Assembly (NCBI GenBank): GCA_913046815.1
Contig: CAJWTE010000002.1
Coordinates: 1 to 39,922, forward strand
Source of the DNA: an uncultured bacterium
Lineage (GTDB): Bacteria > Patescibacteriota > Minisyncoccia > Phycocordibacterales > UBA918
DNA length: 39,922 nucleotides
Direction: 5' to 3'
Positions 2,690 through 36,566 of this stretch are shown here, piece after piece (the stretch's first letter is position 1; each line of letters starts with the position of its first letter). Below the pieces are notes generated by a model that saw only the letters and a list, made by a program, of their open reading frames with translations, made no database searches and was not told where the DNA came from. The position numbers and the translations under genes were made by a program.

Positions 2690-4075
2690 ATGAGCAATCC
2701 TCAAAATAATCGTAATCTGAGAACTATCCCTAGTAACTTGGAGGCCGAAAAAGCTTTACTCGGTGCAATAATTTTAAAGCCCGAGGCGATGCACGACATA
2801 TCTGTAACTGTCTTTCCGGAAAGCTTTTATGCAGATAAACATAGAGAAATATACCGAGCTATTTTAGAAATATTTACTAAAGGCGACCCGATAGACGTTT
2901 TGAGTGTTAGTGACAAGCTTAGAGCCAATGGACAGCTAGAGCGTGTTGGTGGCGCCACCTACCTTACAGAATTGACGGAAGGTGTACCTGCTGCTGGTAA
3001 TGCCTTGTACTATGCCGGACAGGTTCATGACAAGTCCGTATTGAGAGGTTTGATTCATGCTGGGGATGATATAGCGGAGCTTGGATATTCCAATCCGGAG
3101 GCAATAGACGAAACCCTCGATCAAGCTGAAAAGAAGATTTATAATGTTACTAATATTAGTACAACACAAAGTTTCCGCGCTATTGGCAATTCCTTATCTG
3201 AGGCATGGAGTCGCTTCGAACATCTCAGTGCCAACAAGGATGAGAGGCGGGGTGTGCCAACCGGTTTTACAGCACTAGACAATTTGCTTTCTGGTTTACA
3301 AAAATCAGATTTGGTTATATTAGCGGCTCGTCCATCAATGGGAAAGACCACTTTCGCCCTAGACTTAGCAAGAAACTCAGCCCTCAAGCATGGATCAACT
3401 GTTGGTATTTTTTCTCTTGAAATGAGTGATCAGCAGTTAGTAGACAGAATGCTGGCATCAGAGGCTGGGGTGGACTCATGGAAGCTACGTACTGGTCGAT
3501 TATCTACAGATCAGGAGTTCGAAGCTGTACAAGAAGCTATGGCCAGATTATCTGAAGCTCCCATTCATATTGACGACCAACCAGGTACCAATATTTTGAA
3601 AATGCGATCTTCTGCTCGACGACTTAAGAATGAGCATGGATTGGATCTGCTCATCGTCGACTACCTTCAACTCATGAGCCCTACTAATACAAAGGCAAGT
3701 GATTCTATGGTTCAACAAGTAACTGAGATTTCCCGTTCCCTAAAAATCTTGGCCCGTGAGTTAGATATACCGGTACTGGCATTGTCTCAGCTCTCGCGAG
3801 CGGTAGAGCAACGAGGTGGTAAGCCGAGACTCTCTGACCTGCGTGACTCCGGCTCCATTGAGCAAGACGCTGACGTGGTTATGTTTATTCATCGGGAAGA
3901 CAAAGTAAATAAAGACCAAGAACCTGAAAGACCAAATATCGCAGAGATTTTGGTAGAAAAGCATAGGAACGGGCCAGTCGGCTTGGCAGAACTATACTTT
4001 GATAGCAAACATGTCCGTTTTCTTAATCTCGACACACACCATTCAACAGCAGCGACAGATAATGACGATTTTTAG
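2690..4075 (+). CDS. dnaB: replicative DNA helicase DnaB
   Basis: 461 aa. N-terminal NLEAEKALLGAIIL motif, Walker A ARPSMGKTTFAL, and DYLQLM / SQLSRAVEQR motifs typical of DnaB. Confidence 0.95.
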   Translation: MSNPQNNRNLRTIPSNLEAEKALLGAIILKPEAMHDISVTVFPESFYADKHREIYRAILEIFTKGDPIDVLSVSDKLRANGQLERVGGATYLTELTEGVPAAGNALYYAGQVHDKSVLRGLIHAGDDIAELGYSNPEAIDETLDQAEKKIYNVTNISTTQSFRAIGNSLSEAWSRFEHLSANKDERRGVPTGFTALDNLLSGLQKSDLVILAARPSMGKTTFALDLARNSALKHGSTVGIFSLEMSDQQLVDRMLASEAGVDSWKLRTGRLSTDQEFEAVQEAMARLSEAPIHIDDQPGTNILKMRSSARRLKNEHGLDLLIVDYLQLMSPTNTKASDSMVQQVTEISRSLKILARELDIPVLALSQLSRAVEQRGGKPRLSDLRDSGSIEQDADVVMFIHREDKVNKDQEPERPNIAEILVEKHRNGPVGLAELYFDSKHVRFLNLDTHHSTAATDNDDF

Positions 4076-19852: not shown

Positions 19853-20242
19853 TCAAATGTACATACTGTGTTCTAACTTATATCCAACTCCCCAAACCGA
19901 ACAAATTGGATCTGCTCCGATCTGAGGTTGCAGCGCGCGTCTGGTTTTTCTTACTAGGTCATGTGCCATTTTGTTTGCCACTGCTTGATCTGCGCATCTA
20001 TAATCCCGATTCTGCACATTCGCGCTGCATAAACTGTTGAAGGAAACGACATTGCCAGGATGTCTGGCAAGAAGACACATGACCCTGAAAGGGTGTTTGG
20101 AAAGGTGGATTAACTTCCCGTCTAACTTAGCAAGATAGACTAAATTGTTTCCATTATCAAACACAAAAACCATTCCGCACGTCTCAACCAATCGCTCTCC
20201 AGGAGAAAGAGAGTCGCCCGGATAAGTATCTCGATACATCAT
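19853..20242 (-). CDS. stand-alone OmpR/PhoB-type winged-helix DNA-binding protein (no receiver domain)
   Basis: 129 aa. LSKHPFRVMCLLARHPGNVVSFNSL ... VANKMAHDLVRKTRRAL ... VWGVGYKLE matches the trans_reg_C pattern. Very strong SD AGGAGGAGG lies 4 nt upstream. Confidence 0.75.
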   Translation of the reverse strand: MMYRDTYPGDSLSPGERLVETCGMVFVFDNGNNLVYLAKLDGKLIHLSKHPFRVMCLLARHPGNVVSFNSLCSANVQNRDYRCADQAVANKMAHDLVRKTRRALQPQIGADPICSVWGVGYKLEHSMYI

Positions 20243-20356
20243 TTTGCCTCCTCCTAATTGTACTCATTCGGAATTACTCTACAATCTTACTCAAACATGG
20301 TCAATATCTTTGTCTTTCTGGTATTATTTGCTAGTATTTGCGCACAATGAGTGTTG

Positions 20357-20427
20357 GCCCTATCGTCTAACGGCTAGGACACATGGTTCTCATCCATGAA
20401 ACCGGGGTTCGATTCCCCGTAGGGTCA
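20357..20427 (+). tRNA. tRNA-Glu (anticodon CUC)
   Basis: Manual cloverleaf. Acceptor GGCCCTA/TAGGGTC (one G-U pair), D arm GTCT..GGAC, anticodon stem CATGG/CCATG with loop TTCTCAT, T arm CGGGG-TTCGATT-CCCCG, discriminator A. The variable loop is short (AAC). No encoded CCA; CAA follows. Confidence 0.8.
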
Positions 20428-21944
20428 CAAAACGAGACTTCGTCTCGACTGAGCGAGCGCGTCGAAGACGCGCGAGATGAGGCAAGAGGAAAACGGGCTT
20501 TGCCCTGCAACACAAAACCAAAGGGTGACGAGACGGAGAAGCGCGCGGTTTTGTCACGAACCGAAGGGTTCGTTCCGACTTTTTTGACGAAAGCGGCGAT
20601 TTCGGAGAAATCATCGCTGGAGGATAAAAAGGTGGCTTGTTTCGTATCTAAAATCCACTCACGCAGGGGTTCGACCCAATTATTTCCTTGGTGGGCAAAA
20701 TCTTTCTTTTTCTCCTTTAAAGTCAGGGTGGCACGCATGATTTCGTCTTTCTTTTTAAGGTACAAGTCTTTCGGTATATCGCCATCCAAATAACTCTCCA
20801 CCAGTTTGTCCATGCGTGCTTCACTGGCTTTGATACTATCTGAAAGATTTTGTACACCACTTTGCGATGCGGTATTTTCTGCTTTCTCCCATTCCTCCAC
20901 TTTACCGAGCATGTATGCGGTATACGCATCGCAAAGCGAAATTGTTTGAAGCTGTGTCTTTAGTTGGTCGGCGAGAACGTCCTCGCGCACATATCCTTGG
21001 GAGCATGACCCTTTCTTTTTCGTACACCGATAGTACCTATATCTTCCCCCATGCCTTCCAGTTGCCCACTGAGCGGTAATCATAGAGTCACACTCTCCGC
21101 AACGAAAAAGATTGGTGAACGGAAAGTTATGACCAAGCCTTGTTTTTCTCGGCCGAGCGTTAGCCGACAAAACAACTTGTACGGCTTCAAACAATTTCGG
21201 GGAAAGTATTGGTGCAAAGCTTCCGTCAAACCATTCGTCTTTATGTTTGGTAAATCCGAGATAGGCTCGATTAGTTAGGATTCGTTTAACGGAAGCTTTG
21301 CCAAGTGGCGTACCTGCCTTTGTAGTGAGTCCAAGATCAAATAGAAAATGTGAAAGCGAGACAAGTCCATGCGTACCCTTTGCATACTCCTCATAAGCGC
21401 GCACAATAATCTGGCTATGCACTGGATGTGGCTCTATCACTTTCTTTGCCTTATTATTTACATAGCCAAAAGGAGCGCGCGTCAGCCACTCACCACGGCG
21501 TAGCTTTGCCCGCATACCTCGCTTCACATTTTGGGTTAAATTGTCCGAATAATACTTAGACTGACCAAAAGCCACTTGAAGCATGAACAACCCCTGCGGA
21601 GTGGGTTCAAACCAAAATGTCGGAAAGCGCAAAGACACTATTTTCTTTTGATCTACCGCGTAGATAACCTGCCCTCCATCTATACTATTACGTGCCAGTC
21701 TATCTGGATGCCACGCTAAAACACCAAACCCTTCCAAAGAGTTAATCTGCTCCATCATTTTATTAAAAACTGGTCTCCCGGGTGTCTTTGCGCTTTTTGA
21801 CTCTTGAAACTCCGTTAGGATTTCAAGATTTTCTTTACGCGCAAACTCTCGCATTTCAAAAAGCTGTGACTCAATAGACATGACTTGCTTATCGTCATCT
21901 TCGGTACTTTTGCGAGCGTATAGAAAATATTTTGGTTTGTTCAT
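20367..21944 (-). CDS. large serine recombinase (integrase type)
   Basis: 525 aa. Resolvase-type N-terminus YARKSTEDDDKQVMSIESQ, recombinase domain, zinc ribbon CGECDSMITAQ...YYRC, then a coiled-coil-like region. The last ~63 codons are encoded by antisense R1a and antisense tRNA-Glu, so the true C-terminus is uncertain. Confidence 0.9.
   Translation of the reverse strand: MNKPKYFLYARKSTEDDDKQVMSIESQLFEMREFARKENLEILTEFQESKSAKTPGRPVFNKMMEQINSLEGFGVLAWHPDRLARNSIDGGQVIYAVDQKKIVSLRFPTFWFEPTPQGLFMLQVAFGQSKYYSDNLTQNVKRGMRAKLRRGEWLTRAPFGYVNNKAKKVIEPHPVHSQIIVRAYEEYAKGTHGLVSLSHFLFDLGLTTKAGTPLGKASVKRILTNRAYLGFTKHKDEWFDGSFAPILSPKLFEAVQVVLSANARPRKTRLGHNFPFTNLFRCGECDSMITAQWATGRHGGRYRYYRCTKKKGSCSQGYVREDVLADQLKTQLQTISLCDAYTAYMLGKVEEWEKAENTASQSGVQNLSDSIKASEARMDKLVESYLDGDIPKDLYLKKKDEIMRATLTLKEKKKDFAHQGNNWVEPLREWILDTKQATFLSSSDDFSEIAAFVKKVGTNPSVRDKTARFSVSSPFGFVLQGKARFPLASSRASSTRSLSRDEVSFCDPTGNRTPVSWMRTMCPSR
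20412..20428. repeat. attL core (direct repeat copy 1, inside tRNA-Glu T arm/acceptor)
   Basis: ATTCCCCGTAGGGTCAC, identical to 27830-27846. Confidence 0.8.
20425..20553 (+). repeat. repeat R1a (129 bp, hairpin-rich), directly after tRNA-Glu
   Basis: Aligns without gaps to the reverse complement of 21985-22113, with 12 mismatches by manual alignment. Contains hairpins GAGAC-TTC-GTCTC, GCGCGTC-GAA-GACGCGC, GGGC-TTT-GCCC and CAAAACC...GGTTTTG. Confidence 0.9.
20553..20586 (+). terminator. intrinsic terminator-like hairpin plus T6 following R1a (antisense to the recombinase ORF)
   Basis: GTC-ACGAACC-GAAG-GGTTCGT-TCC-GAC, followed by TTTTTT (20580-20585). Confidence 0.5.
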
Positions 21945-21984
21945 AATTTTGGAAAAATTATATTTTTAGACATGAAACAAGAGG

Positions 21985-22183
21985 CAAAACCGCGCACTTT
22001 TCCGTCCCGTCACCCTTTGGTTTTGTGTTGCAGAGCAAAGCCCGTTTTCCTCTTGCTTCATCTCGCGCGCCTTCGGCGCGCTCGTTATCTAGAGACGAAG
22101 TCTCGTTTTGTGAAGAAATACTAACCCGCGCTCGAACTTACTTTGAACAGAACTAGCAACGCGCGGAGCGCGTGGTAGCTTTG
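21985..22183 (-). repeat. repeat R1b (21985-22113) plus X module (to 22183), forming the upstream/leader region of the recombinase gene
   Basis: R1b is the inverted copy of R1a. 22092-22183 is the inverted copy of 27395-27486, with 6 mismatches in 92 bp by manual alignment. Confidence 0.9.
22118..22147 (-). promoter_or_regulatory. promoter-like element inside X, pointing into R1b and the recombinase gene
   Basis: On the minus strand: TTCAAA (22147-22142), 18-nt spacer, TAGTAT (22123-22118). The same arrangement is conserved in the X copy at 27431-27460. Confidence 0.4.
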
Positions 22184-22263
22184 TACTTGAACGTACGCAT
22201 TCGCGTGCGTGGTGACGCTAAACAAGCGCCTCGGGGCGCGTTCGTCACCTCGCGCAGCAACCT

Positions 22264-22349
22264 CCAAAAATTTCCTTACCATTTCTAAAAAGCGGAAGGG
22301 GGTGCAGGGGGAAGCCGCCAAAAAGTTGAAAGGAAATTTTGGGGTTGCT
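22264..22349. repeat. repeat R2a (86 bp), perfect inverted copy of 24757-24842
   Basis: The manual reverse complement of 22264-22349 equals 24757-24842 at all 86 positions. Contains GGAAGGGGGTGCAGGGGGAAG. Confidence 0.95.
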
Positions 22350-22396
22350 AGTTTGCTTTACCTGTTCATTCTTCTTTCTCTAACGGCTGCCCTAGT

Positions 22397-22464
22397 GTAA
22401 CCAACCCGAATAACTCGAATCGCTAAGACAGCCATTAGAAAAAGCTATTCGGAAAGTTGGTTAC
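22397..22464. other. long two-tier hairpin (9-bp and 7-bp stems)
   Basis: GTAACCAAC-CCGAATA ... TATTCGG-AAA-GTTGGTTAC. Non-coding stretch between R2a and the terminators of the 306-aa ORF. Confidence 0.55.
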
Positions 22465-22484
22465 AAGTTCAGTATAGCATAATG

Positions 22485-22538
22485 AAAAACCGCTACGTGA
22501 TTTAGCGTAGCGGAAGGGTGGCGGCGTATCCGCCACCC
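22485..22538 (-). terminator. tandem terminator hairpins of the 306-aa ORF
   Basis: Read on the minus strand: GGGTGGCGG-ATACG-CCGCCACCC, then CCGCTACG-loop-CGTAGCGG followed by TTTTT. Confidence 0.75.
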
Positions 22539-22550
22539 TAGCAATTTCAA

Positions 22551-23471
22551 TCAGGAATCACGATGAGCCGCCGGACACGCGGCCTTGCATTCATCCTCGT
22601 TCCTGTAACAGTCCCAGAGTTGTCTCGGATGTTCATCCTCGAAGTGTGCAAAACTGTTTTCAATCTTGAGCACCTTTCTTGATATCGGGAAATATTGGTT
22701 GTTGAAGTCCCGATCATAAGAGTGAGAATGGTACACAACCCAGACCTTTTCGCCAGGCTTCACCCAGGAGATTGTCCTAAGTCTTTGTCCGAGAGCACTG
22801 TATTCTGTCTCTGCTCGCCCGAGCTTGCCCATGAGATCTTCGACCATCGTTTCGGCTGCAGCATAGAGTCGCTCAACAATTCCACGAAGCAGATACGAAC
22901 CGTTTTCCTTGTCCTGAAAACACCACTCGACGACCTTGAAGAGACTGACCTCAGAAACCTTGAGGTGTTCTTTAGTATCGTCGCTCCGTCTGTAAACCGT
23001 GTTGGTGAGTGACCCTGGAATAGCCGGATGTTTCCGTTTCTCCAGAAGCCATACGGTGTTCAGAATACAGAAGCGACCACCTCTATCAAGCAGAAGATGT
23101 TCACACGGTATCTCCTCCGGATAGCTGGCGTGGCCTTGAGCCATACTCTTGAAGCTTGACGGAAAGCTGTGACGCACTCCGCAGACGAGGAAGTCATGTC
23201 CCCAGCTAAACTCGCGCGATGCGCCAACATCGCCGAACCAGATTCTTGACGGAGGGCTTGAGTTGTATAGGCTCACGCCGTCATCCTCGGGAATGTCGAT
23301 TACTGGTACAAGTGTCGCCGGTTTGAATCCGTGAAGAAATTTTGGATTCACGATCTTCAGAGTTGATTTTATGATCTCCATCCAATCCCCAAAGGGAATT
23401 GCCTTGGGGTCAAGTACCTCACGACCTTCGAAAAAAGCAATTGTGTGTTCAGCATCCCTGACCGTAGCCAT
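22551..23471 (-). CDS. hypothetical protein, 306 aa, no recognisable family
   Basis: Long GC-rich ORF with SD AGAGAGG 8 nt upstream and its own terminators. No motif I can name. Confidence 0.7.
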   Translation of the reverse strand: MATVRDAEHTIAFFEGREVLDPKAIPFGDWMEIIKSTLKIVNPKFLHGFKPATLVPVIDIPEDDGVSLYNSSPPSRIWFGDVGASREFSWGHDFLVCGVRHSFPSSFKSMAQGHASYPEEIPCEHLLLDRGGRFCILNTVWLLEKRKHPAIPGSLTNTVYRRSDDTKEHLKVSEVSLFKVVEWCFQDKENGSYLLRGIVERLYAAAETMVEDLMGKLGRAETEYSALGQRLRTISWVKPGEKVWVVYHSHSYDRDFNNQYFPISRKVLKIENSFAHFEDEHPRQLWDCYRNEDECKAACPAAHRDS

Positions 23472-23649
23472 GTCGGATTCCTCTCTCTTTCAAATAGCAC
23501 TCCTGACCGTAGTCATGTCGAGCGCTGGTTGCTGTTATGGAACTCCTGTTCCGTTGCTACAGTGCTTTAAAATAGTGGTTTTGTCAACTAATCAACAGGC
23601 AGCTGTAAAAAGTTATAATTTGAACACAAATTTTGTTATACTAAGAATA

Positions 23650-24117
23650 ATGACCAAGAAAGCGACATACAGCGCTGATAATGTCGCCAAGTATCTTATT
23701 TACCTTGCCTCTCAAGAACTTGTCGGTGATAATCAAGAACGTGAAGGGATAACAAACCTTAAGTTACAAAAGGTGCTGTATTTTGTGCAAGCTTATTATC
23801 TTGCAAAATTGGGACATCCGTTGTTTTCAGACAAAATTGAAGCTTGGGAGTATGGACCTGTGATTCCAACTGTGTACAGAAAGTACAGAGCCAACGTTAG
23901 CAACCCAATAATTTTGGATGAAGATAAATCCACTCTTTCTGAGGAGGATAAAAAGAATGTACAAAAAATTTGGGAAACTTTTGGTGGTTACTCAGCTAGT
24001 CGTTTGGTAGATATTACTCATGCACATTCACCTTGGAAAGATGCCAGTCAAACTGCCAGTAAAGTTATTACAGCGAAGTCGCTAAGAGAATATTACACTC
24101 CTTTGCTAAACAAATAG
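23650..24117 (+). CDS. Panacea-domain (DUF4065, SocA/GepA-like) antitoxin-type protein
   Basis: 155 aa from the ATG at 23650; the ORF-track start at 23371 is an extension through the divergent promoter region. ITNLKLQKVLYFVQAYYLAKLGHPLFSDKIEAWEYGPVIPTVY and GGYSASRLVDITHAHSPW match the DUF4065 pattern. Confidence 0.8.
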   Translation: MTKKATYSADNVAKYLIYLASQELVGDNQEREGITNLKLQKVLYFVQAYYLAKLGHPLFSDKIEAWEYGPVIPTVYRKYRANVSNPIILDEDKSTLSEEDKKNVQKIWETFGGYSASRLVDITHAHSPWKDASQTASKVITAKSLREYYTPLLNK

Positions 24118-24130
24118 GCAAGGTTAATCC

Positions 24131-24532
24131 TTGTTTATGGACGGTCTAGATATTCCGACAAAATTTGATCTTGGGTACGCTGAGTCAAATGTGTGCTTTT
24201 CGATTACTGATTGTTCATTGAAGAAGTACTCGTTCTGGTGTTTGAACAAACAACAAGCAGAAACTTTGCTAAAACGATTGAAGCATATTGAAAAACTCAC
24301 ATGGAGCCAGTTCATAAATCTATCTAGACAAGACGGAGTCACGCCTGAAAAGAATGATACACCCAACTTTATAATGATCCATGAAGAAAATACCTCGCCC
24401 GACAAAATGGTTGAACAATATTATTTTCATTTCCGCATTGAGAAGAGAGGATTATTTCGTGTCTTCGGGTATCAGAAGAAACAATTCTTTTGTATAACTC
24501 ATATTGATCCGAATGGAAAAATAAACCACTAA
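24131..24532 (+). CDS. hypothetical protein, 133 aa; candidate toxin partner of the Panacea protein
   Basis: Starts 13 nt after the Panacea gene (TTG at 24131 or ATG at 24137). C-terminal RGLFRVFGYQKKQFFCITHIDPNGKINH is loosely reminiscent of RelE/ParE-superfamily C-termini, but no firm family assignment is possible. Confidence 0.6.
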   Translation: MFMDGLDIPTKFDLGYAESNVCFSITDCSLKKYSFWCLNKQQAETLLKRLKHIEKLTWSQFINLSRQDGVTPEKNDTPNFIMIHEENTSPDKMVEQYYFHFRIEKRGLFRVFGYQKKQFFCITHIDPNGKINH

Positions 24533-24559
24533 AATTAACAAAGTTACTAAGCTCACCTA

Positions 24560-24704
24560 ACAGCACCGCAGCAGCTCGCGCGAACGAATGTGAGCGAGCT
24601 ATGCGAAGGTGCTGTAGGCGTGAGCATGTATAGCGTACCACCTGCTCTGTATACGCGACAGCGCCTCGGGTGCCACCAGTCTGGAGAAAGTGATGAACAA
24701 AGCC
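24560..24704 (+). repeat. repeat Y, copy B (about 145 bp), direct copy of 27249-27401
   Basis: About 80 percent identity by eye with one ~9-nt indel. Nested stems are conserved in both copies: CAGCACC/GGTGCTG and AGCTCGC/GCGAGCT. Followed by hairpin AGCCCCT-loop-AGGGGCT (24701-24723). Confidence 0.8.
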
Positions 24705-24756
24705 CCTACTTCTTAAAGGGGCTTTGTGAAGAACTTTTGGAAGACTGGGAGGCAAA

Positions 24757-24842
24757 AGCAACCCCAAAATTTCCTTTCAACTTTTTGGCGGCTTCCCCCT
24801 GCACCCCCTTCCGCTTTTTAGAAATGGTAAGGAAATTTTTGG
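24757..24842. repeat. repeat R2b (86 bp), perfect inverted copy of 22264-22349
   Basis: See R2a. Confidence 0.95.
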
Positions 24843-24845
24843 GTA

Positions 24846-24927
24846 TTGCGAGTTTGCCGACCCCACTTATTATAATATATCACACTATATCAATGTAACA
24901 CATGAATGGTTAGAATGTTGATATAGT
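24846..24927 (+). promoter_or_regulatory. putative promoter and operator of the XRE gene
   Basis: TTGCGA (24846-24851) with TATTAT at 16 nt or TATAAT (24871-24876) at 19 nt. 10-bp inverted repeat ACTATATCAA (24884-24893) / TTGATATAGT (24918-24927) ends at the ATG. Confidence 0.4.
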
Positions 24928-25137
24928 ATGAATAGCAAGGCAGTTAAACAGTTCGCTTCGAACATGAAGCAAGTGCGTGAAGCGAAGAAAATGTCGCAAG
25001 GTGACATTTTCAGAGTGACAGGTATCGAAAGAGCGTATATCAGTAACCTCGAAGCTGGCAAACAAAATCCAACGTTAGAAACGATCGAAAAGATAGCACA
25101 AGCGTTGGGTGTTGAAGTTAGTGAATTAACAAAGTAA
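24928..25137 (+). CDS. XRE-family (Cro/CI-type) HTH transcriptional regulator
   Basis: 69 aa. MSQGDIFRVTGIERAYISNLEAGKQNPTLETIEKIAQALGV is a textbook HTH_3 pattern. Confidence 0.88.
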   Translation: MNSKAVKQFASNMKQVREAKKMSQGDIFRVTGIERAYISNLEAGKQNPTLETIEKIAQALGVEVSELTK

Positions 25138-25139
25138 GT

Positions 25140-26216
25140 ATGCCAAAAGGATTTGAATCAGCGTCAGCACACCCATCGCCACAAAAAATTGAAGGCGAGG
25201 ACGTGAGCAAAGTGACTGCCTCTGAAGAACGACCAACGTTTGATGAATTCGAAGGTGGCGAATTGGATGAGCGAGGCGAATTCAAAGAGCCTACCCCGGA
25301 GGAGCAAGAAAAGTTTCGTGACAGAGTTGCTCGTATGTCAGAGGTTCTTGAGGACGCGGACTTTACCTGGTATCTCGATGGAGCAACGAACATATCTTTG
25401 TATGGCGACCAAATGATACGAAACCATAAGGATTTAGACATGAGTGTGTTTCAAGAAGATCTTGGTAAATTAGAGGACCTGCTCAACAATCAAGGATTCG
25501 GAATTTTTGTTAACTACAAGGAAGATAGGAAAGAACTGATGCGAAAAGTGACTGCACAAGAATTAGGTTTACTTGAAAATCCAGACGTGTCGATTTGTAA
25601 AGTTGGACCAGACGGAACCCTTAGTTCAAAAAATTCGCACGAGGCTTTTGATTTTGTCGACTTACATATACGGGACATAGATGAATTTGGTGATGTTGTC
25701 GTTGGTTACAGTGGTATTTCTATACCTAAAGAATATTTTGAGCCGATAAGGAAAGAACTTCCAAACGGAAAAATAATCAGCCTTTCCCACCCTGCCGTTG
25801 TTGCCTACCACAAACTACACTCAACACGTGCATATGACGTAAAAGATTTGCAAATACTTTCACCCCTGCTCACACAAGAAGATATTGCAATGTTGCGGTC
25901 AAGCGTCGAGAAAGAAGCTGGGGTGTTAGATAAAAGGACACGTGAGGTATTAAAGGAAGTTTGGGGTGAATTGTCGCCTGTTCTAGAGACAGCACCTGAC
26001 CCAGATACAATTGCAGAGAAACTGCGGTCGCATCCTGAGATTGGAAAAAGAAATACTGACGAATCTGTTGCTAATTACATTTCATCAATTTCACAATATT
26101 TGTCCGAAAACCCTAGTGTAACTGCTGATGATTTCATCAGTCAGTCAATATCAATATTAAACATTAAAAAGCGAGCGGAAGAGCAGATAAAATTGATTGA
26201 TCAACTGGAGCAGTGA
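25140..26216 (+). CDS. nucleotidyltransferase-fold protein (Lnu/ANT(2'')-like core) with acidic N-terminal and helical C-terminal extensions
   Basis: 358 aa; starts 2 nt after the XRE stop. FTWYLDGATNISLYGDQMIRNHKDLDMSVF (G-x-D-x-D NTase motif), VDLHIRDIDEFGDVV and LSHPAVVAYHKLHSTRAYDVKDLQIL parallel the lincosamide nucleotidyltransferase LnuA layout as I recall it. Confidence 0.65.
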   Translation: MPKGFESASAHPSPQKIEGEDVSKVTASEERPTFDEFEGGELDERGEFKEPTPEEQEKFRDRVARMSEVLEDADFTWYLDGATNISLYGDQMIRNHKDLDMSVFQEDLGKLEDLLNNQGFGIFVNYKEDRKELMRKVTAQELGLLENPDVSICKVGPDGTLSSKNSHEAFDFVDLHIRDIDEFGDVVVGYSGISIPKEYFEPIRKELPNGKIISLSHPAVVAYHKLHSTRAYDVKDLQILSPLLTQEDIAMLRSSVEKEAGVLDKRTREVLKEVWGELSPVLETAPDPDTIAEKLRSHPEIGKRNTDESVANYISSISQYLSENPSVTADDFISQSISILNIKKRAEEQIKLIDQLEQ

Positions 26217-26235
26217 AGCCTTAAAATTTTTGAGT

Positions 26236-26264
26236 TTGACAACTAAGTATATCTATGCTATTCT
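26236..26264 (+). promoter_or_regulatory. sigma70-type promoter for the GC-rich patch sORF
   Basis: TTGACA (26236-26241), 17-nt spacer, TATTCT (26259-26264). Confidence 0.5.
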
Positions 26265-26307
26265 TTGTTTAGCTTAAACGCAGGTTTTTCCTGCACGTTC
26301 CGCCTAT

Positions 26308-27183
26308 TTAGGCACAACTCGATGGAGGAATCCAATATGCATGGTTATGTGAGACCGATGGGTAGGGCTGCATGGCGCGACCCGGTTCAGACGAGGAGTC
26401 TGTATCTCCTCGGCCCCGAGAGCTTTGACACCGTCCAGGTGCACGAGCTCGACGAGGACGGCAAGTCCGTCCGTGAATACCAGCACATCCGCCATGATCG
26501 TGTCGGAGACTGCTGGGCGGCTGAAGCCTGGCGACATCATCTTGGTAGATGAGCTTGCCGGCGACTGCTTCTACAACTTGTGTTGCTCGGAACAAATTTG
26601 CAGCTAACTCCTCGCTATTCATGTGATCTAGAATCTGTTGAGATTTCTTCAAGCTTTTTCTGCGGTGAATATCTTGACTCGTAAGTCCGCCATACAGGCC
26701 CTTATACCCAGCATTTTGGAAAATGGCGTAATTTTGCACGCCAGCACTCTTAGCGGTTTTTGTAAGGTTAGTATTATGCTTCTTCATTTCTTCCCTTAAA
26801 AATACACGCTTATTATCCTCAACTAAATTTTCAGTTTTTTCTTGCCTTCGTGTCTGTATCGCAAAGTATGTCTGTCCCTTTGCTACCACAACTTTTGTTG
26901 GGTCTGAATTTTGAACAATAAGATAACAGGCATATCTTGATAGATAGACAGTTTCAACAGACCTTTCTGCACCGGAACCCGTTTTAACCATTTCGGTGGC
27001 ATCAACGAAATGGTTGTGGATAACTTCTCCGCTGTTTTCACATGCTGTTTTAGCCTTATTTATAGCGGTTAAAAAGTTACGGTAATCTGTATACTCTAGA
27101 GCTTTTGCAAGGTCACGAGATGACCAAAATTCTGAATCATTTTCGTCAAAGCGTCTAATTGTTTCAAACTGATTTTCCTTCAT
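26308..27183 (-). CDS. dinD: DNA damage-inducible protein D (DinD) family; C-terminal ~89 codons non-homologous, likely 3' replacement
   Basis: From MKENQFETIRRF (start 27183 or 27192) to ELAANLFRATQ, the sequence tracks E. coli DinD as I recall it (SRYACYL.VQN.DP, GQTYFAIQTRRQE, FQN.GY.GLYGG, ILDHM.S.ELAANLFRATQ). Downstream of about 26578 the reading becomes an Arg/Pro/Gly-rich tail through the GC-rich patch. Confidence 0.8.
   Translation of the reverse strand: MKENQFETIRRFDENDSEFWSSRDLAKALEYTDYRNFLTAINKAKTACENSGEVIHNHFVDATEMVKTGSGAERSVETVYLSRYACYLIVQNSDPTKVVVAKGQTYFAIQTRRQEKTENLVEDNKRVFLREEMKKHNTNLTKTAKSAGVQNYAIFQNAGYKGLYGGLTSQDIHRRKSLKKSQQILDHMNSEELAANLFRATQVVEAVAGKLIYQDDVARLQPPSSLRHDHGGCAGIHGRTCRPRRARAPGRCQSSRGRGDTDSSSEPGRAMQPYPSVSHNHAYWIPPSSCA
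26337..26552 (+). CDS. hypothetical small protein, 71 aa, in a GC-rich patch
   Basis: SD GGAGG (26324-26328) lies 8 nt before the ATG at 26337, with a promoter upstream. Antisense to the non-homologous tail of the DinD-like ORF, so only one of the two readings can be genuine. Confidence 0.45.
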   Translation: MHGYVRPMGRAAWRDPVQTRSLYLLGPESFDTVQVHELDEDGKSVREYQHIRHDRVGDCWAAEAWRHHLGR

Positions 27184-27248
27184 TTTGACCATTATACTAC
27201 AAAATAAGAACACTGACTTCCTGCTCAAAAACACACCGTTGCGAACCC

Positions 27249-27512
27249 ACAGCACCGTAGCAGCTCGCGCGAACGGGCGTTAGCTCGTGAGCGAGCTGTG
27301 CGGAGGTGCTGGAGGTGAGAGCGTGTTTAGCATTACCACGCGGTTGGTCTACACGTAGCGCCTCGGGCGCCAACAGACTGGAGAAAAGTCTGAACAAAGC
27401 CACCACGCGCTCGGCGCGTTGCTAGTTCTGTTCAAAATAAGTTCGAGTAAGGGTTAGTATTTCTTCACAAAACGAGACTTCGTCTCTATTGAGCGGGCGC
27501 GCCGAGCGCGCT
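27249..27512 (+). repeat. composite repeat Y-X-R1c (copy C)
   Basis: Y 27249-27401 is a direct copy of 24560-24704. X 27395-27486 is an inverted copy of 22092-22183. From 27465 a partial R1 copy follows (hairpin GAGAC-TTC-GTCTC, then GCGCGC-CGA-GCGCGC). The promoter-like TTCAAA-18-TAGTAT lies at 27431-27460. Confidence 0.85.
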
Positions 27513-27563
27513 GCAATCATTGTCTTTTCTCAAAGTGGGTTCGAGCGAGGGTAAGTATTTCTT

Positions 27564-27611
27564 CACGAGTACAGAAAACAGCACCTGTCAAAGGTGCGTT
27601 TTCTGTTCGTG
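27564..27611 (+). other. long hairpin preceded by a second X-like box
   Basis: CACGA-GT-ACAGAAAAC-A-GCACC-TGTCAAA-GGTGC-GTTTTCTGT-TCGTG. Preceded by GGGTTCGAGCGAGGGTAAGTATTTCTTCAC (27537-27566), a degenerate copy of the X 3' end. Confidence 0.55.
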
Positions 27612-27780
27612 GCTCTACGAGTAACAGTGCTAGCACCATAGAGAGTACTTCGATATTCATGGATGCTTCGCTTCTTAAAAATATGGTCGCTCACTGTTAC
27701 GTGAAAAACGAACCGGCGTAGCTATGTATTTTATTCTTTTCCTAGAACAAAGTACGGACGAGGTGTGTTCCGCGGCACTT

Positions 27781-27811
27781 CATATTTTATAAGCTGCGCT
27801 TATAAAATATG
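27781..27811 (-). terminator. AT-rich 14-bp-stem hairpin abutting the ddl stop codon (island-derived)
   Basis: CATATTTTATAAGC-TGC-GCTTATAAAATATG. Lies on the island side of attR, immediately after the ddl stop (27812-27814). Confidence 0.45.
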
Positions 27812-28927
27812 TTAGTGACCGTCAGGATCATTCCCCGTAGGGTCACCAGCCCAAAAAAGATGGGTTCGTAGCGACTGCTCACTCTCGAACCTTTCTATCG
27901 CCAGTTTTATAAGCCGATCAATTAACTCAGTGTAGGGGATGCCACTATGTTCCCACAACTGTGGATACATGCTTACTTTTGTAAAGCCGGGAATAGTATT
28001 GATTTCTATCACCTTTAACTCTCCATCTGGCTGAAGGAAAAAGTCCACCCGACCTAGGCCAGAGCACTCCAGAAGTTTAAAAACCCTCACAGCTAATCCT
28101 TGCACTTCCTCCACCTTTTCCGCGTCCAATTCGGCTGGGATTTTTAGAGCTGCTCCATTTTCATCTATATACTTGGCTTCATAAGAGTAAAAGTCATGAG
28201 CCGGCACAATTTCTCCAGGAATGGACGCTACTGGATCCCTGTTTCCCAGCACAGCACACTCTATCTCTCTGCCTTCCACTGCTTCTTCCACGATGATTTT
28301 CGTATCATAGGAAAAAGCCTCTTTCACAACTTCATACAATTCACTCTCATTACTGGCTTTATTGACACCTACAGAAGAGCCCATGTTTACAGGCTTCACA
28401 AATACAGGCCAACCTAACTTAGCTTCGACTTCCAAGCCATCAACATCGTCGACACTTCGGTAAACTAGAAAGTCAGCCGTGGGTATACCCGCGTCTCGTA
28501 AAAGACGCTTCATAACGTCCTTATCCATTCCAACAGCGGAACCAAGCACCCCGGCACCCACGTAAGGTACACATGCTAATTCTAACAAACCTTGTACTGT
28601 TCCGTCTTCACCCATAGGTCCGTGCAGTATAGGAAATACAACATCTACAGCTCCAGGATTGTTTGAGAGCTGTCCGTGACATGATGGTACTAATGAGATC
28701 TCCTCATTGACTTGGTTTAAAGCAATCAACTTTGGGTCGTTACTATTCAGTAGAAGCTCACTTTCATTACCCATAAGCCACTTCCCTTTCTTAGTGATAC
28801 CAATAGGTATTACTTCATACTTCTGTTTATCGATGGCGTCGATAACATTTTGTGCGGATTGTAAGGACACCTCATGCTCAGCAGATAATCCACCAAACAA
28901 GATGCCAACTCTAATTTTCTTATCCAT
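27812..28927 (-). CDS. ddl: D-alanine--D-alanine ligase
   Basis: MDKKIRVGILFGGLSAEHEVSLQSA, GEDGTVQGLLE and an ATP-grasp layout. Start 28927 is preferred over the ORF-track 28963, which lies inside a palindrome. The C-terminal tail ...WAGDPTGNDPDGH reads through attR. Confidence 0.93.
   Translation of the reverse strand: MDKKIRVGILFGGLSAEHEVSLQSAQNVIDAIDKQKYEVIPIGITKKGKWLMGNESELLLNSNDPKLIALNQVNEEISLVPSCHGQLSNNPGAVDVVFPILHGPMGEDGTVQGLLELACVPYVGAGVLGSAVGMDKDVMKRLLRDAGIPTADFLVYRSVDDVDGLEVEAKLGWPVFVKPVNMGSSVGVNKASNESELYEVVKEAFSYDTKIIVEEAVEGREIECAVLGNRDPVASIPGEIVPAHDFYSYEAKYIDENGAALKIPAELDAEKVEEVQGLAVRVFKLLECSGLGRVDFFLQPDGELKVIEINTIPGFTKVSMYPQLWEHSGIPYTELIDRLIKLAIERFESEQSLRTHLFWAGDPTGNDPDGH
27830..27846. 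repeat. attR core (direct repeat copy 2)
   Basis: ATTCCCCGTAGGGTCAC. Here GGGTCA is followed by CCA, as expected for an original tRNA 3' end with encoded CCA. Confidence 0.8.
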
Positions 28928-28945
28928 CGTATAAGAATACCAGAT

Positions 28946-28983
28946 AAATATACACGCATGCATTAATGCATGCGTGTATATTT
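28946..28983. terminator. perfect 38-bp palindrome (19-bp arms) between the FN3-like gene and ddl
   Basis: AAATATACACGCATGCATT | AATGCATGCGTGTATATTT. Likely a terminator/attenuator between the two minus-strand genes. Confidence 0.65.
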
Positions 28984-36526: not shown

Positions 36527-36566
36527 GACATAAGCCGCGCAACACTCGTGTTGCGCGGCTTATGTC
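36527..36566 (-). terminator. perfect 18-bp-stem hairpin after greA
   Basis: GACATAAGCCGCGCAACA-CTCG-TGTTGCGCGGCTTATGTC, 10 nt downstream of the greA stop. Confidence 0.7.

Follow-up and report, generated by a model that had tools for sequence, protein, structure and literature searches.

Large serine integrases of phages (phiC31, Bxb1, A118/LI, SPbeta SprA) act on sites of about 50 bp through a short crossover core and are encoded beside attP. Repeats spanning a tRNA gene from its T-loop to its 3' end are typical of tyrosine integrases. Small cargo islands beside tRNA genes of streamlined marine bacteria are known as tycheposons; in Prochlorococcus, tyrosine recombinases were found in 97% and a large serine recombinase (LSR) in 27 of 937 (bioRxiv 10.1101/2020.12.28.424599). 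Here we analysed the window, a stretch of 39,922 nucleotides from a marine CPR (Patescibacteria) bacterium, in which a 7.4-kb segment adjoins tRNA-Glu(CTC). This segment resembles the phage systems in the resolvase, recombinase and zinc ribbon domains of its LSR, in its short core and site size and in a recombinase gene placed beside an attP-like site; it resembles tycheposons in its position, small cargo and type of host. Within the searchable papers, we found no description of this LSR island family. The stretch from 20429 to about 27566 is probably an ageing integrated island from an LSR cargo-island family found across Patescibacteria, followed by about 280 bp of older scars up to 27846.

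The insertion beside tRNA-Glu

The segment lies between housekeeping genes, in line with the original prediction. Pfam domains identify an FAD-linked oxidase and a Trans_reg_C protein on the left, and ddl with the dcw cell-division cluster (MraZ, RsmH, PBP, Mur ligase) on the right. Its borders comprise:

20356–20428 (+): tRNA-Glu(CTC), host target gene (ARAGORN; Rfam RF00005, 20356–20427, 60 bits)
20412–20428 (+): left copy of the 17-nt direct repeat ATTCCCCGTAGGGTCAC, covering tRNA T-arm and acceptor 3' end (exact match)
20367–21944 (−): LSR gene, 525 aa (Pfam PF00239, PF07508, PF13408; PHROG 95, integrase)
27830–27846 (+): right copy of the repeat; CA follows, completing CCA, and then the ddl ORF's 3' end (exact match)
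27812–28963 (−): ddl (D-Ala-D-Ala ligase), host gene (Pfam); the ORF reads through the right repeat copy

tRNA-Glu(CTC) is the sole ARAGORN prediction and is intact through C74, after which CAA takes the place of CCA past the junction. The 17-mer occurs exactly twice in the window, with no further copy at up to two mismatches and none expected by chance (100 shuffles). Its right copy stands in the context ...GGGTCA-CCA-G and its left copy in ...GGGTCA-CAAAACG. The intact tRNA, the exact repeat and the CCA on the right only, all claimed before, are present. Homologues of ddl have 360–367 aa (96% query coverage), and the last ~15–25 residues of the window ddl are not conserved. Since the same structure was found in five independent assemblies of the host species at 99.8–100% identity, it is not an assembly artefact.

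The 525-aa LSR had been described as abutting the tRNA-proximal end; its ORF even ends inside the tRNA gene, with the stop codon 62 nt within tRNA-Glu. It combines Resolvase, Recombinase and Zn_ribbon_recom domains (Pfam) and is the sole recombinase in the 7.4-kb segment. More than 6,800 homologues were found, the top 120 of which are 66–84% identical and belong to Patescibacteria. A distant match leads to SprA/YokA (PDB 9dxh), and no relatives were found in IMG/VR. The best NCBIfam match was CcrB, but an assignment to Ccr was rejected because the score of 96 bits compares with a cut-off of 900. No recombination directionality factor was recognised for the element.

A sister species has tRNA-Glu(CTC) at the same syntenic place and carries neither LSR nor cargo. 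The order there is ddl, about 0.8 kb (a MazE-like ORF and ~550 bp of relics), tRNA-Glu, Trans_reg_C and an 88-aa gene. With ddl and tRNA-Glu only this far apart, the 7.4-kb segment has indeed been inserted beside tRNA-Glu, as had been claimed. The site in the sister species is scarred, and the clean empty form that had been predicted (tRNA-CCA-ddl) was not found. One of its relics reads GGGATCAT-CCCCCGTAGGGTCAC-AAAACGAGACTTCG..., a fusion of the right copy's left flank, a sequence resembling the 17-mer and arm A; the GGATCAT variant left of the right copy also occurs in a sister-species relic. At least four copies or fragments of the same 13–17-mer are present there in both orientations, several with the same left boundary. 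Inserted or scarred DNA in the window extends outwards as far as the right 17-mer copy. No excised circle, pristine empty site or split reads were obtained, and a metagenome scan gave 0 matches.

Nested repeats and cargo

The interior of the segment holds the following features. Nested inverted repeats, an internal attP-like site and an invertible segment had been missed by the original prediction.

20425–20428 (+): J1, core TCAC (tRNA nt 71–74), proposed attL crossover block; start of inverted repeat I1 and direct repeat D4
20425–20553 (+): arm A1, 129 nt; inverted repeat with 21985–22113 (91%)
21985–22113 (−): arm A2, inverted copy of A1, 40 bp upstream of the LSR start codon
22110–22143 (−): J2, internal attP-like site, b half-site AAGTAAGTTCGAGCGCGGGTTAGTATTTCT plus core TCAC, running into A2 (pattern search)
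22114–22356 (−): near B arm, ~243 nt, non-coding, hairpin-rich; homologous to other B arms, that of L001 among them (B-arm alignment)
22264–22349 (+): left arm of a perfect 86-nt inverted repeat (distal part of B)
22357–24751: invertible cargo segment, 2.4 kb; opposite orientation known at 100% identity
22551–23471 (−): unknown protein, 306 aa, in the 2.4-kb segment
23515–24117 (+): SocA/Panacea-domain protein, in the 2.4-kb segment
24137–24532 (+): MAG6450-family protein, in the 2.4-kb segment
24757–24842 (−): right arm of the 86-nt inverted repeat
24928–27255: second cargo module (Pfam, PADLOC, NCBIfam, gene calls)
24928–25137 (+): XRE-type HTH, second module
25140–26216 (+): nucleotidyltransferase, second module
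26308–27213/27255 (−): DinD/Bro-N protein, second module (PADLOC candidate PDC-S13, 1e-88)
27394–27511 (+): J3, far-arm remnant; 71 nt of B ending in a b half-site, core TCAC (27465–27468), 43 nt of A-type arm (a3)
27530–27566 (+): second b half-site plus core TCAC (27563–27566), canonical attR-type site, then host-like trailer
27567–27829 (+): scar zone or native trailer module; bidirectional terminator at its start, inverted degenerate tRNA-3'-like piece inside

It is at 20425 that J1 starts to match J2 and the far sites. Arm A1 contains the tRNA trailer supplied by the element, a terminator-like hairpin of the LSR strand (20433–20447) and, on the opposite strand, the last ~43 LSR codons; ORFs within the B arms translate to junk. 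The pattern of b plus TCAC was found at three sites in the window (0 expected), including two direct sites at 27441–68 and 27539–66, likewise with 0 expected by chance. J3 forms an inverted repeat with 22065–22184 (89%) and a direct repeat of 20425–20473 (88%). Judged by this pattern, the canonical right ends of the window element are 27465–68 and 27563–66. A bidirectional terminator-like hairpin (27581–27597) lies just after the second b-core site, and 27563–27630 aligns at 80% to positions 3280–3344 of the sister species (L094, blast). The right 17-mer copy is 260–360 bp beyond the canonical right ends, in a relic zone common to the sister species. Because the repeat arms are only 89–91% identical and the far B arm is broken in two, the window copy may no longer move.

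The cargo, by its domains (SocA/Panacea, XRE with nucleotidyltransferase, DinD/Bro-N), is defence- or addiction-like, which agrees with what had been proposed; the DinD/Bro-N protein scores 301 bits against NCBIfam DinD (cut-off 242). The short ORFs at 22121–22321 and 27197–27406 gave no matches in PHROG or PADLOC. Both orientations of the 2.4-kb segment are present in ocean samples: it is flipped in PAMK01000004.1 (L089) at 100% identity, and has the window orientation in L092 and a TARA scaffold. Since this one inversion uses the 86-nt repeat within the B arms and not the cores, it could be the product of homologous recombination.

The family in Patescibacteria and how its members may integrate

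The window segment belongs to a large Patescibacteria family of small LSR islands that target tRNA and tmRNA ends. LSR relatives are encoded at more than 528 loci of GTDB genomes, in Patescibacteria. Among the best 80 of these loci, 73 have a convergent tRNA or tmRNA gene at the LSR 3' end (71 tRNA overlaps, 2 tmRNA), so that the position against a tRNA gene, claimed for this one LSR, is a family-wide rule. About 7 of the 80 have no adjoining tRNA or tmRNA; at L032, L048 and L058 the arm in this place is b-like or of another non-tRNA kind.

The block shared between junctions in 45 relatives is only 4–5 nt long and co-varies with tRNA type, which contradicts the proposed use of a long identity block. 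Identity of the tRNA junction with the internal site begins exactly 4 nt inside the tRNA, and the core corresponds to tRNA nt 71–74 (TCAC for Glu, CCGC for Ser, GCAC for Arg, Leu and Gly; TCAC, CCGC, GCAC, CCAC and GGAC over the 45 loci). Each core position is palindromic (CG or GC) in at least one tRNA class, so the crossover dinucleotide cannot be fixed. The b half-site is kept across all tRNA types at these loci; the block common to them, consisting of b (30 nt), core and AnAnnGAAACTTC, spans ~47 bp, the size of an LSR attP. Three junctions characterize an element: attL (tRNA-core-A), attR (b-core-host trailer) and an attP-like b-core-A, which is an internal inverted copy directly upstream of the LSR gene. 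This layout results in inverted repeats of ~130 nt round the LSR gene and ~240 nt round the variable cargo. The window carries all three junction types and both repeat sets in decayed form (~90% arm identity).

An equivalent of the A1/A2 repeat was detected in 50 of 54 relatives, and inverted repeats round the cargo in 16 of the 30 with enough sequence; the LSR module was flipped at none of 50 loci. Far junctions read b-core-y, and y starts with CA in four loci. In L053 this CA is followed by a terminator 30 nt from truB, and at other loci y adjoins a GMP synthase gene or SpoU with tRNA-Val. A long tRNA repeat at the right end is absent in relatives, except for two loci with direct repeats of at least 17 nt (L041 and L056; 19- and 24-nt tRNA-end repeats), where it lies outside the canonical right end. 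LSRs that are 93–97% identical and have near-identical A arms occupy tRNA-Ser(GCT, CGA, TGA) as well as one tRNA-Arg(ACG) whose final bases, TCTCCGC, are the same. The nearest-neighbour LSR sits at the same tRNA type in 57 of 72 cases (permutation expectation 24). Related elements are 89–95% alike in LSR, A arms and B arms and have unrelated cargo, the direction of which varies among loci.

We infer that the LSR recombines a ~47-bp element site (b half-site, 4-nt core, a half-site) with a tRNA or tmRNA 3' end, the host site extending from the T-loop to C74 and on into the native trailer. Strand exchange would occur within a 4–5-nt block that combines C74 and the discriminator with the two acceptor bases before them (TCAC in tRNA-Glu). 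The products would be attL, with the whole tRNA followed by arm A as new trailer and the LSR's own 3' end, and attR, with b-core-old trailer. Specificity would derive from generic tRNA features plus the core, so that the same element type could enter any tRNA with the same end bases. The conserved b half-site carries a T-loop-like GTTCG 6 bp further from the core, which compares with an offset of ~5 bp for LSR zinc-ribbon motifs. Each element retains a full inverted attP-like copy between LSR gene and cargo; long inverted repeats therefore bracket the two separately, and the cargo is a module that can be swapped and, in some cases at least, inverted. The internal site may have a function, and the LSR may take part in inversion.

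An unlikely alternative is a single 7.4-kb element whose LSR works through the 17-bp identity block, with the 17-mers as attL and attR cores and excision restoring tRNA-CCA-ddl. An exact repeat with no copies expected by chance, the CCA kept at the right copy, a sister relic resembling the predicted circle junction and the tRNA-end repeats in L041 and L056 argue for it. However, the latter also lie past the canonical right end, the junctions of 45 relatives share only 4–5 nt, two canonical b-TCAC right ends lie inside the 17-mer boundary, and the 260 bp inside the right copy open with a host-like bidirectional terminator, their first ~65 nt aligning to the sister species. Of the integrative element originally proposed, the insertion, LSR, tRNA site and cargo stand; the 17-bp block as att and the right end at 27830–27846 are not supported. 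Somewhat less probable still, the repeat could be the scar of a lost tyrosine-integrase element or an old partial tRNA-Glu duplication, with the LSR element arriving independently. Its extent from T-loop to 3' end and the copies or fragments in both orientations in the sister species fit such a history, but the ORFs of at least 100 aa between the 17-mers match no tyrosine integrase family (Pfam), and the sister 17-mer relic is directly joined to an LSR-element A arm.

We give an equally low probability to an LSR that is mainly a resident DNA invertase, flipping cargo for phase variation of defence genes in a unit that is not, or no longer, mobile. Cargo-flanking inverted repeats next to the recombinase gene (16 of 30 relatives), the 2.4-kb segment found both ways round in nature and the variable cargo direction are consistent with this, but the island is present or absent between sister species, near-identical elements occupy different tRNAs and genomes, and host genes follow immediately past the far junction. 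Moreover, the inversion seen does not involve core sites, and the LSR module never appeared flipped (0/50). That the tRNA gene belongs to the element and is not its target, as the overlapping LSR ORF at 71 of the 80 best loci might suggest, is largely refuted and hardly credible: the sister species keeps tRNA-Glu(CTC) at this syntenic position although it has no LSR, the displaced CCA and terminator of the host tRNA are found at far junctions, and one element type occurs beside four different tRNA species.

Comparison with described systems

The window element differs from phage large serine integrases, SprA/YokA included, in several respects. The family targets tRNA and tmRNA genes at their very 3' end and has neither phage genes nor IMG/VR relatives, a full inverted attP-like copy lies inside the integrated element, and the LSR ORF crosses the attachment site, with no directionality factor recognised. 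Many tycheposons carry replication modules (bioRxiv 10.1101/2020.12.28.424599), whereas the LSR is the only conserved gene here; host phylum and repeat architecture differ as well.

As in the Gin/Cin/Hin segments (Mu G; P1 C, whose inverted repeats measure 0.6 kb) and in shufflons, a serine recombinase gene of the window neighbours a segment with inverted repeats on either side, the presumed crossover sites mark the outer limits of these repeats and one segment is known in two orientations. In contrast to those systems, the window encodes a 525-aa LSR and not a ~190-aa invertase, is also inserted at a tRNA gene, and has non-coding repeats and an inversion away from the core sites. By analogy only, SSV-type archaeal integrases likewise have attP within the integrase ORF, alter a gene end on integration and target tRNA genes. 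The yeast 2-micron plasmid, again as an analogy, has two unique regions split by two inverted repeats that each hold a recombinase site, a likeness limited to the hypothetical excised circle of the window element. Both use tyrosine recombinases, unlike the window LSR. SCC elements (SCCmec, Ccr, rlmH 3' end) differ in their rlmH target, whereas the window has a tRNA target, a single recombinase gene and nested long inverted repeats. Like the window segment, they are LSR-driven cargo islands positioned at a conserved housekeeping gene's 3' end, where several elements and scars accrete with repeated att sites.

A recombinase family at tRNA 3' ends

The tRNA-Glu(CTC) gene at 20356-20428 (+) is the sole tRNA that ARAGORN finds in the window; Rfam agrees, and its search of 20000-28200 returned tRNA only. 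As originally predicted, this gene forms the island edge, housekeeping genes lie on both island flanks, and the 17-mer ATTCCCCGTAGGGTCAC occurs exactly at 20412-20428 and again at 27830-27846, followed by AAAACG at the left copy and by CA (...GGGTCA-CCA) at the right. No more copies were found in the window at up to two mismatches (0 expected by chance). The large serine recombinase (LSR) ORF predicted at the tRNA end was also recovered (20367-21944 (-), 525 aa); its stop codon lies within the tRNA gene, and its last ~20 codons are the antisense of that gene. The window is a TARA Oceans scaffold, and the same DNA is present in four other assemblies at 99.8-100% identity.

The catalytic domain of the LSR is of the resolvase type with a serine nucleophile (PF00239, E 3.6e-22, residues 7-153), and the motif YARKS(13)TEDD can be read in the translation. 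It is followed by a Recombinase domain (PF07508, residues 175-261) and a zinc ribbon (PF13408, residues 275-332). An LSR zinc ribbon would also contain an inserted coiled-coil motif; the closest solved structure, SPbeta SprA/YokA (9dxh), is distant and aligns to residue 403 with low accuracy. PHROG 125 (DNA invertase) covers the N-terminal part only. The best NCBIfam match was CcrB, at 95.9 bits versus a cut-off of 900. We rejected membership of the SCC/Ccr group, since no CcrA, CcrB or CcrC match exceeded its family cut-off and the target is a tRNA gene, not rlmH. Among island ORFs of at least 100 aa, the range covered by the Pfam search, none matched a tyrosine integrase family. The short ORFs 22121-22321 and 27197-27406 gave no PHROG or PADLOC match.

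In a protein search, the homologues numbered more than 6800. Identity is 66-84% for the best 120, whose length is often exactly 525 aa and whose named sources are nearly all metagenome-assembled genomes of Patescibacteria/Paceibacteria. Scanning one genome per GTDB species yielded at least 528 family loci. In 71 of the best 80 loci, the LSR 3' end overlaps a convergent tRNA gene: Glu-CTC in 22, Glu-TTC in 14, Ser in 21 and Arg in 6 (7 if L016 is counted, a locus first called Val and reassigned to Arg-TCT), with Leu, Ala, Val, Lys and Gly making up the rest. The Glu share is inflated because tRNA-Glu itself encodes one of the six peptides used in the search; non-Glu loci obey the same rule. In two further loci the overlapped gene is that of tmRNA (ssrA; L067 11526-11920, L080 11526-11917). 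LSR relatives were absent from IMG/VR, where the scan gave just one 32%-identity fragment, and we conclude that the family is not carried by phages.

Several findings are evidence for mobility and bear on target choice. LSRs 93-97% identical, with near-identical flanking repeat arms of the type described below as A, occupy tRNA-Ser(GCT), Ser(CGA), Ser(TGA) and tRNA-Arg(ACG), and the 3' end of that tRNA-Arg(ACG) reads TCTCCGC, as in tRNA-Ser. Nearest-neighbour LSRs share a tRNA class in 57 of 72 cases versus 24 expected by permutation. Several genomes carry two elements at different tRNAs, for example Glu-CTC and Arg-CCT in CP060229.1.

Family cargo is varied: it includes reverse transcriptases, AbiEii/OLD-like ATPases, methyltransferases, a DpnII restriction-modification system, an aromatic amino-acid lyase, GTP cyclohydrolase II, a PLD-like protein and surface beta-helix proteins. 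It held no phage or conjugation genes, and the cargo of 16 loci showed no second conserved gene, such as a recombination directionality factor might be. One tRNA-Glu locus with a 78% identical LSR (L098, 4514-9500) carries a DpnII-type restriction-modification system and an XRE regulator; the tRNA-Glu gene of that genome is on the opposite side of the dcw cluster, and its relative orientation is reversed.

Repeat arms, junctions and att-like sites

We compared the window and 35 relatives having at least 3 kb upstream of the LSR with themselves, and took the junctions of about 50 relatives whose upstream sequence is shorter. An inverted repeat of ~130 nt, IR-A, surrounds the LSR gene in 50 of 54 eligible loci, its arms mostly 97-100% identical inside one genome. 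The tRNA-side arm begins 4 nt within the tRNA 3' end and holds the last ~43 LSR codons; its partner precedes the LSR start codon by 30-170 bp. A second inverted repeat of 150-310 nt, IR-B, was recovered in 16 of the 30 loci whose sequence reaches far enough. Its near arm adjoins the upstream A arm and its far arm lies 1-9 kb off, past the cargo. About 40 of 71 contigs end 60-550 bp upstream of the LSR start, because assemblers cannot cross the 240-nt B repeat. Between related elements the LSR, A arms and B arms are 89-95% alike and the cargo is unrelated, homology running out at, or close to, the inner B-arm ends. Arms are usually 100% identical within one element and divergent between elements, for which concerted evolution, recent formation or frequent exchange are possible explanations.

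Two functions considered for the arms were set aside. ORFs in the B arms translate into low-complexity junk, and we therefore took these arms as non-coding. For a structured RNA in arm A, RNAalifold on the first 89 nt gave just one GC hairpin with modest covariation, and we make no claim of an RNA there. The hairpin at the outermost position makes more sense as an LSR-strand terminator. In the window, the outer end of every A-type arm consists of a hairpin and a T-run in LSR-strand terminator orientation (20433-20447 (-), 22092-22104 (+), 27474-27486 (-)). The hairpin next to the tRNA sits just before the shared junction block, ahead of the in-frame stop codon (20367-69); an LSR transcript ending there would have no stop codon.

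Each element has three junctions. J1, at the tRNA gene, joins tRNA, core and A; J2, just upstream of the LSR gene, joins a half-site b, core and A in inverted orientation; J3, on the far side of the cargo, joins b, core and the host trailer y. In 45 relatives and the window, the three have a 4-5-nt block in common that tracks the tRNA type. This core spans the final two bases of the acceptor stem, the discriminator base and C74, and reads TCAC for Glu, CCGC for Ser, GCAC for Arg/Leu/Gly, CCAC for Ala and GGAC for Lys. The half-site b AAnTGGGTTCGCGCAAAGGTTAnTATTTCA and the start of A AnAnnGAAACTTC are kept across all tRNA classes, and b, core and the start of A make up a block of ~47 bp, which is the size of a serine-integrase attP. 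GTTCG in b stands 6 bp further from the core than the tRNA T-loop GTTCG in J1, a spacing reminiscent of the offset between attP and attB that LSRs are described to have in their zinc-ribbon motifs. In four loci y starts with CA, restoring CCA, and in one of them (L053) a terminator then follows. Host genes past y include truB 30 nt off (L053), a GMP synthase gene (L050) and SpoU with tRNA-Val (L073).

Given the common core, the conserved b and A and the host genes past y, J1 and J3 resemble the attL and attR that a short-core serine integration would leave, and J2 looks like a full copy of the attP that recombination between J1 and J3 would regenerate. In the dyad of the attP-like site, symmetry about C|A is limited to a TTTC/GAAA pair, and no crossover dinucleotide in the site fits all tRNA classes.

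The window element and its sister locus

In the window, these features are arranged as follows.

Features of the window element
20425-28: J1 core; A1 arm 20425-20553
20367-21944 (-): LSR gene
21985-22113: A2 arm, 91% identical to A1
22110-22143 (-): J2
22114-22356: near B arm, homologous to the B arm of a related locus (L001)
24752-24842: far B arm, distal 86-93 nt
27394-27468: far B arm, proximal 71 nt and core, then 43 nt of A-type arm
27530-27566: second b|TCAC
27581-97: bidirectional terminator-like hairpin after the second b|TCAC, as a native tRNA trailer would have

The far B arm is split in two pieces, and the right 17-mer copy lies another 260 bp beyond the second b|TCAC. We read the region, in order, as the tRNA gene, the current element (20429-27468), a ~100-nt remnant of an earlier element, a native trailer and scar module, an orphan tRNA-3' fragment with CCA, and ddl. 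Arm identities of ~90% and the broken far arm suggest that this copy is old and may no longer move; its LSR ORF is intact. A ~150-nt direct repeat of 78% identity precedes each far-arm fragment (24560-24704 and 27249-27401), suggesting that the cargo consists of two modules, each formerly closed by a B arm.

Since the closest Ddl is just 72% identical to that of the window, no conspecific empty site was at hand. The sister species with this Ddl, found in the same samples, has a syntenic locus (ddl, a MazE-like ORF, ~550 bp, tRNA-Glu(CTC), Trans_reg_C, an 88-aa gene), from which both LSR and cargo are absent. It carries relics (L094, 3040-3540): what is left of an A arm (~95 nt), fused to GGGATCATCCCCCGTAGGGTCAC, a tRNA-like 23-mer; and, in either orientation, four or more whole or partial copies of the tRNA 3' 13-17-mer, each beside hairpin modules. 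A stretch of the ~550 bp also aligns with window 27563-27630 at 80%. The 7.4 kb are thus inserted DNA, as had been proposed, and the ddl/tRNA-Glu locus is a long-standing recombination hotspot. The clean empty site expected, tRNA-CCA-ddl, did not appear, the sister species having relics in its place. A 30-mer from the ddl-side flank had 0 matches in a metagenome scan, the collection evidently lacking the species (a JGI contig is known to contain the flank).

The original prediction further held that the element integrates through the 17-bp identity block. The island does have an exact tRNA 3'-end direct repeat of more than 15 bp at both ends, as tyrosine-integrase islands at tRNA genes do, and the chief point for this model is a GGATCAT variant left of the 17-mer that is common to both species and joined to the A arm in the sister; an older variant element possibly carried the 17-mer in its attP. 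The attP seen so far is the internal attP-like copy only. Among the relatives searched, a long identity block did not prove to be an LSR trait: direct repeats of the tRNA end, 12 nt or longer, occur within 10 kb in few loci only. It was this rarity that led us to the short-core model.

Two side observations concern the flanks. The ddl ORF (within 27812-27860) and the LSR ORF (within 20367-20430) cross the 17-mer copies in one frame, both predicting the peptide DPTGN past the core; the final ~15-25 residues of the annotated Ddl, unconserved among homologues, are probably read-through. A 40-nt near-perfect palindrome (36527-36566) in the host region between greA and an aspartyl/asparaginyl-tRNA synthetase-like gene surfaced as a self-inverted match in the alignment of related contigs.

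Cargo inversion and relation to known systems

The segment 22357-24751 is inverted in PAMK01000004.1 (L089, 15088-17541) at 100% identity to the window, and is oriented as in the window in a further contig (L092) and the TARA scaffold. This 2.4-kb segment carries a gene for an unknown 306-aa protein, a SocA/Panacea-domain gene and a MAG6450-family gene. The exchange point falls inside a perfect 86-nt repeat, the distal part of the B arms, which proves that repeat-flanked cargo flips in nature; it does not prove the LSR to be the agent. A segment between inverted repeats that is found in both orientations recalls the Hin/Gin/Cin systems; a small invertase of that kind (~190 aa, C-terminal HTH) was rejected, as the protein is a 525-aa LSR. 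The LSR module was flipped relative to the tRNA in none of 50 loci. No other cargo orientation occurred among 12 contigs with the same LSR (P0010), all being same-oriented or broken at the repeats. More complex arrangements were also observed. Some loci (L032, 7567-16310; L064) are chains of at least three repeat-flanked modules with the LSR module central, b-like arms on both sides and no tRNA within reach; L064 has several nested or duplicated copies.

Three roles are candidates for J2. By analogy with the 2-micron plasmid, it could be a second docking site in a symmetric excised circle; it could also be the partner site in cargo inversion or exchange, or a decoy or regulatory site. We consider it possible, if rather unlikely, that B, core, A, LSR, A, core and B form a symmetric platform with two inverted copies of its own site, on which one LSR both docks at tRNA 3' ends and inverts or exchanges B-flanked cargo. 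Target choice could in that case be reprogrammed by a 4-nt core change.

The genomes of Patescibacteria are tiny; the group is almost without cultured members, and very few mobile elements or genetic tools have been described for it. One recombinase family with sequence-readable att sites in hundreds of genomes explains the location and movement of much of their accessory DNA, namely defence systems, restriction-modification and odd metabolic genes. The LSRs are candidate integration tools for this group, and also provide a natural experiment in serine-integrase specificity, in which the half-sites are constant and the 4-nt core tracks the tRNA end.

Full-text literature searches turned up no account of LSR-tRNA elements from the candidate phyla radiation (CPR). 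LSRs occur in 27 of 937 tycheposons (bioRxiv 10.1101/2020.12.28.424599), and the word tRNA is absent from the main text of the large Durrant et al. 2022 survey of LSRs. The window island and its relatives class as LSR integrative islands, a known type. What sets them apart is the ever-present internal inverted attP-like copy, which may reveal a new mechanism of control or cargo exchange; to our knowledge, it is without counterpart in textbook serine integrase systems. Should the platform reading prove true, the family would be a CPR-specific serine-recombinase counterpart of the integron or shufflon, or a flip system like that of the 2-micron plasmid.
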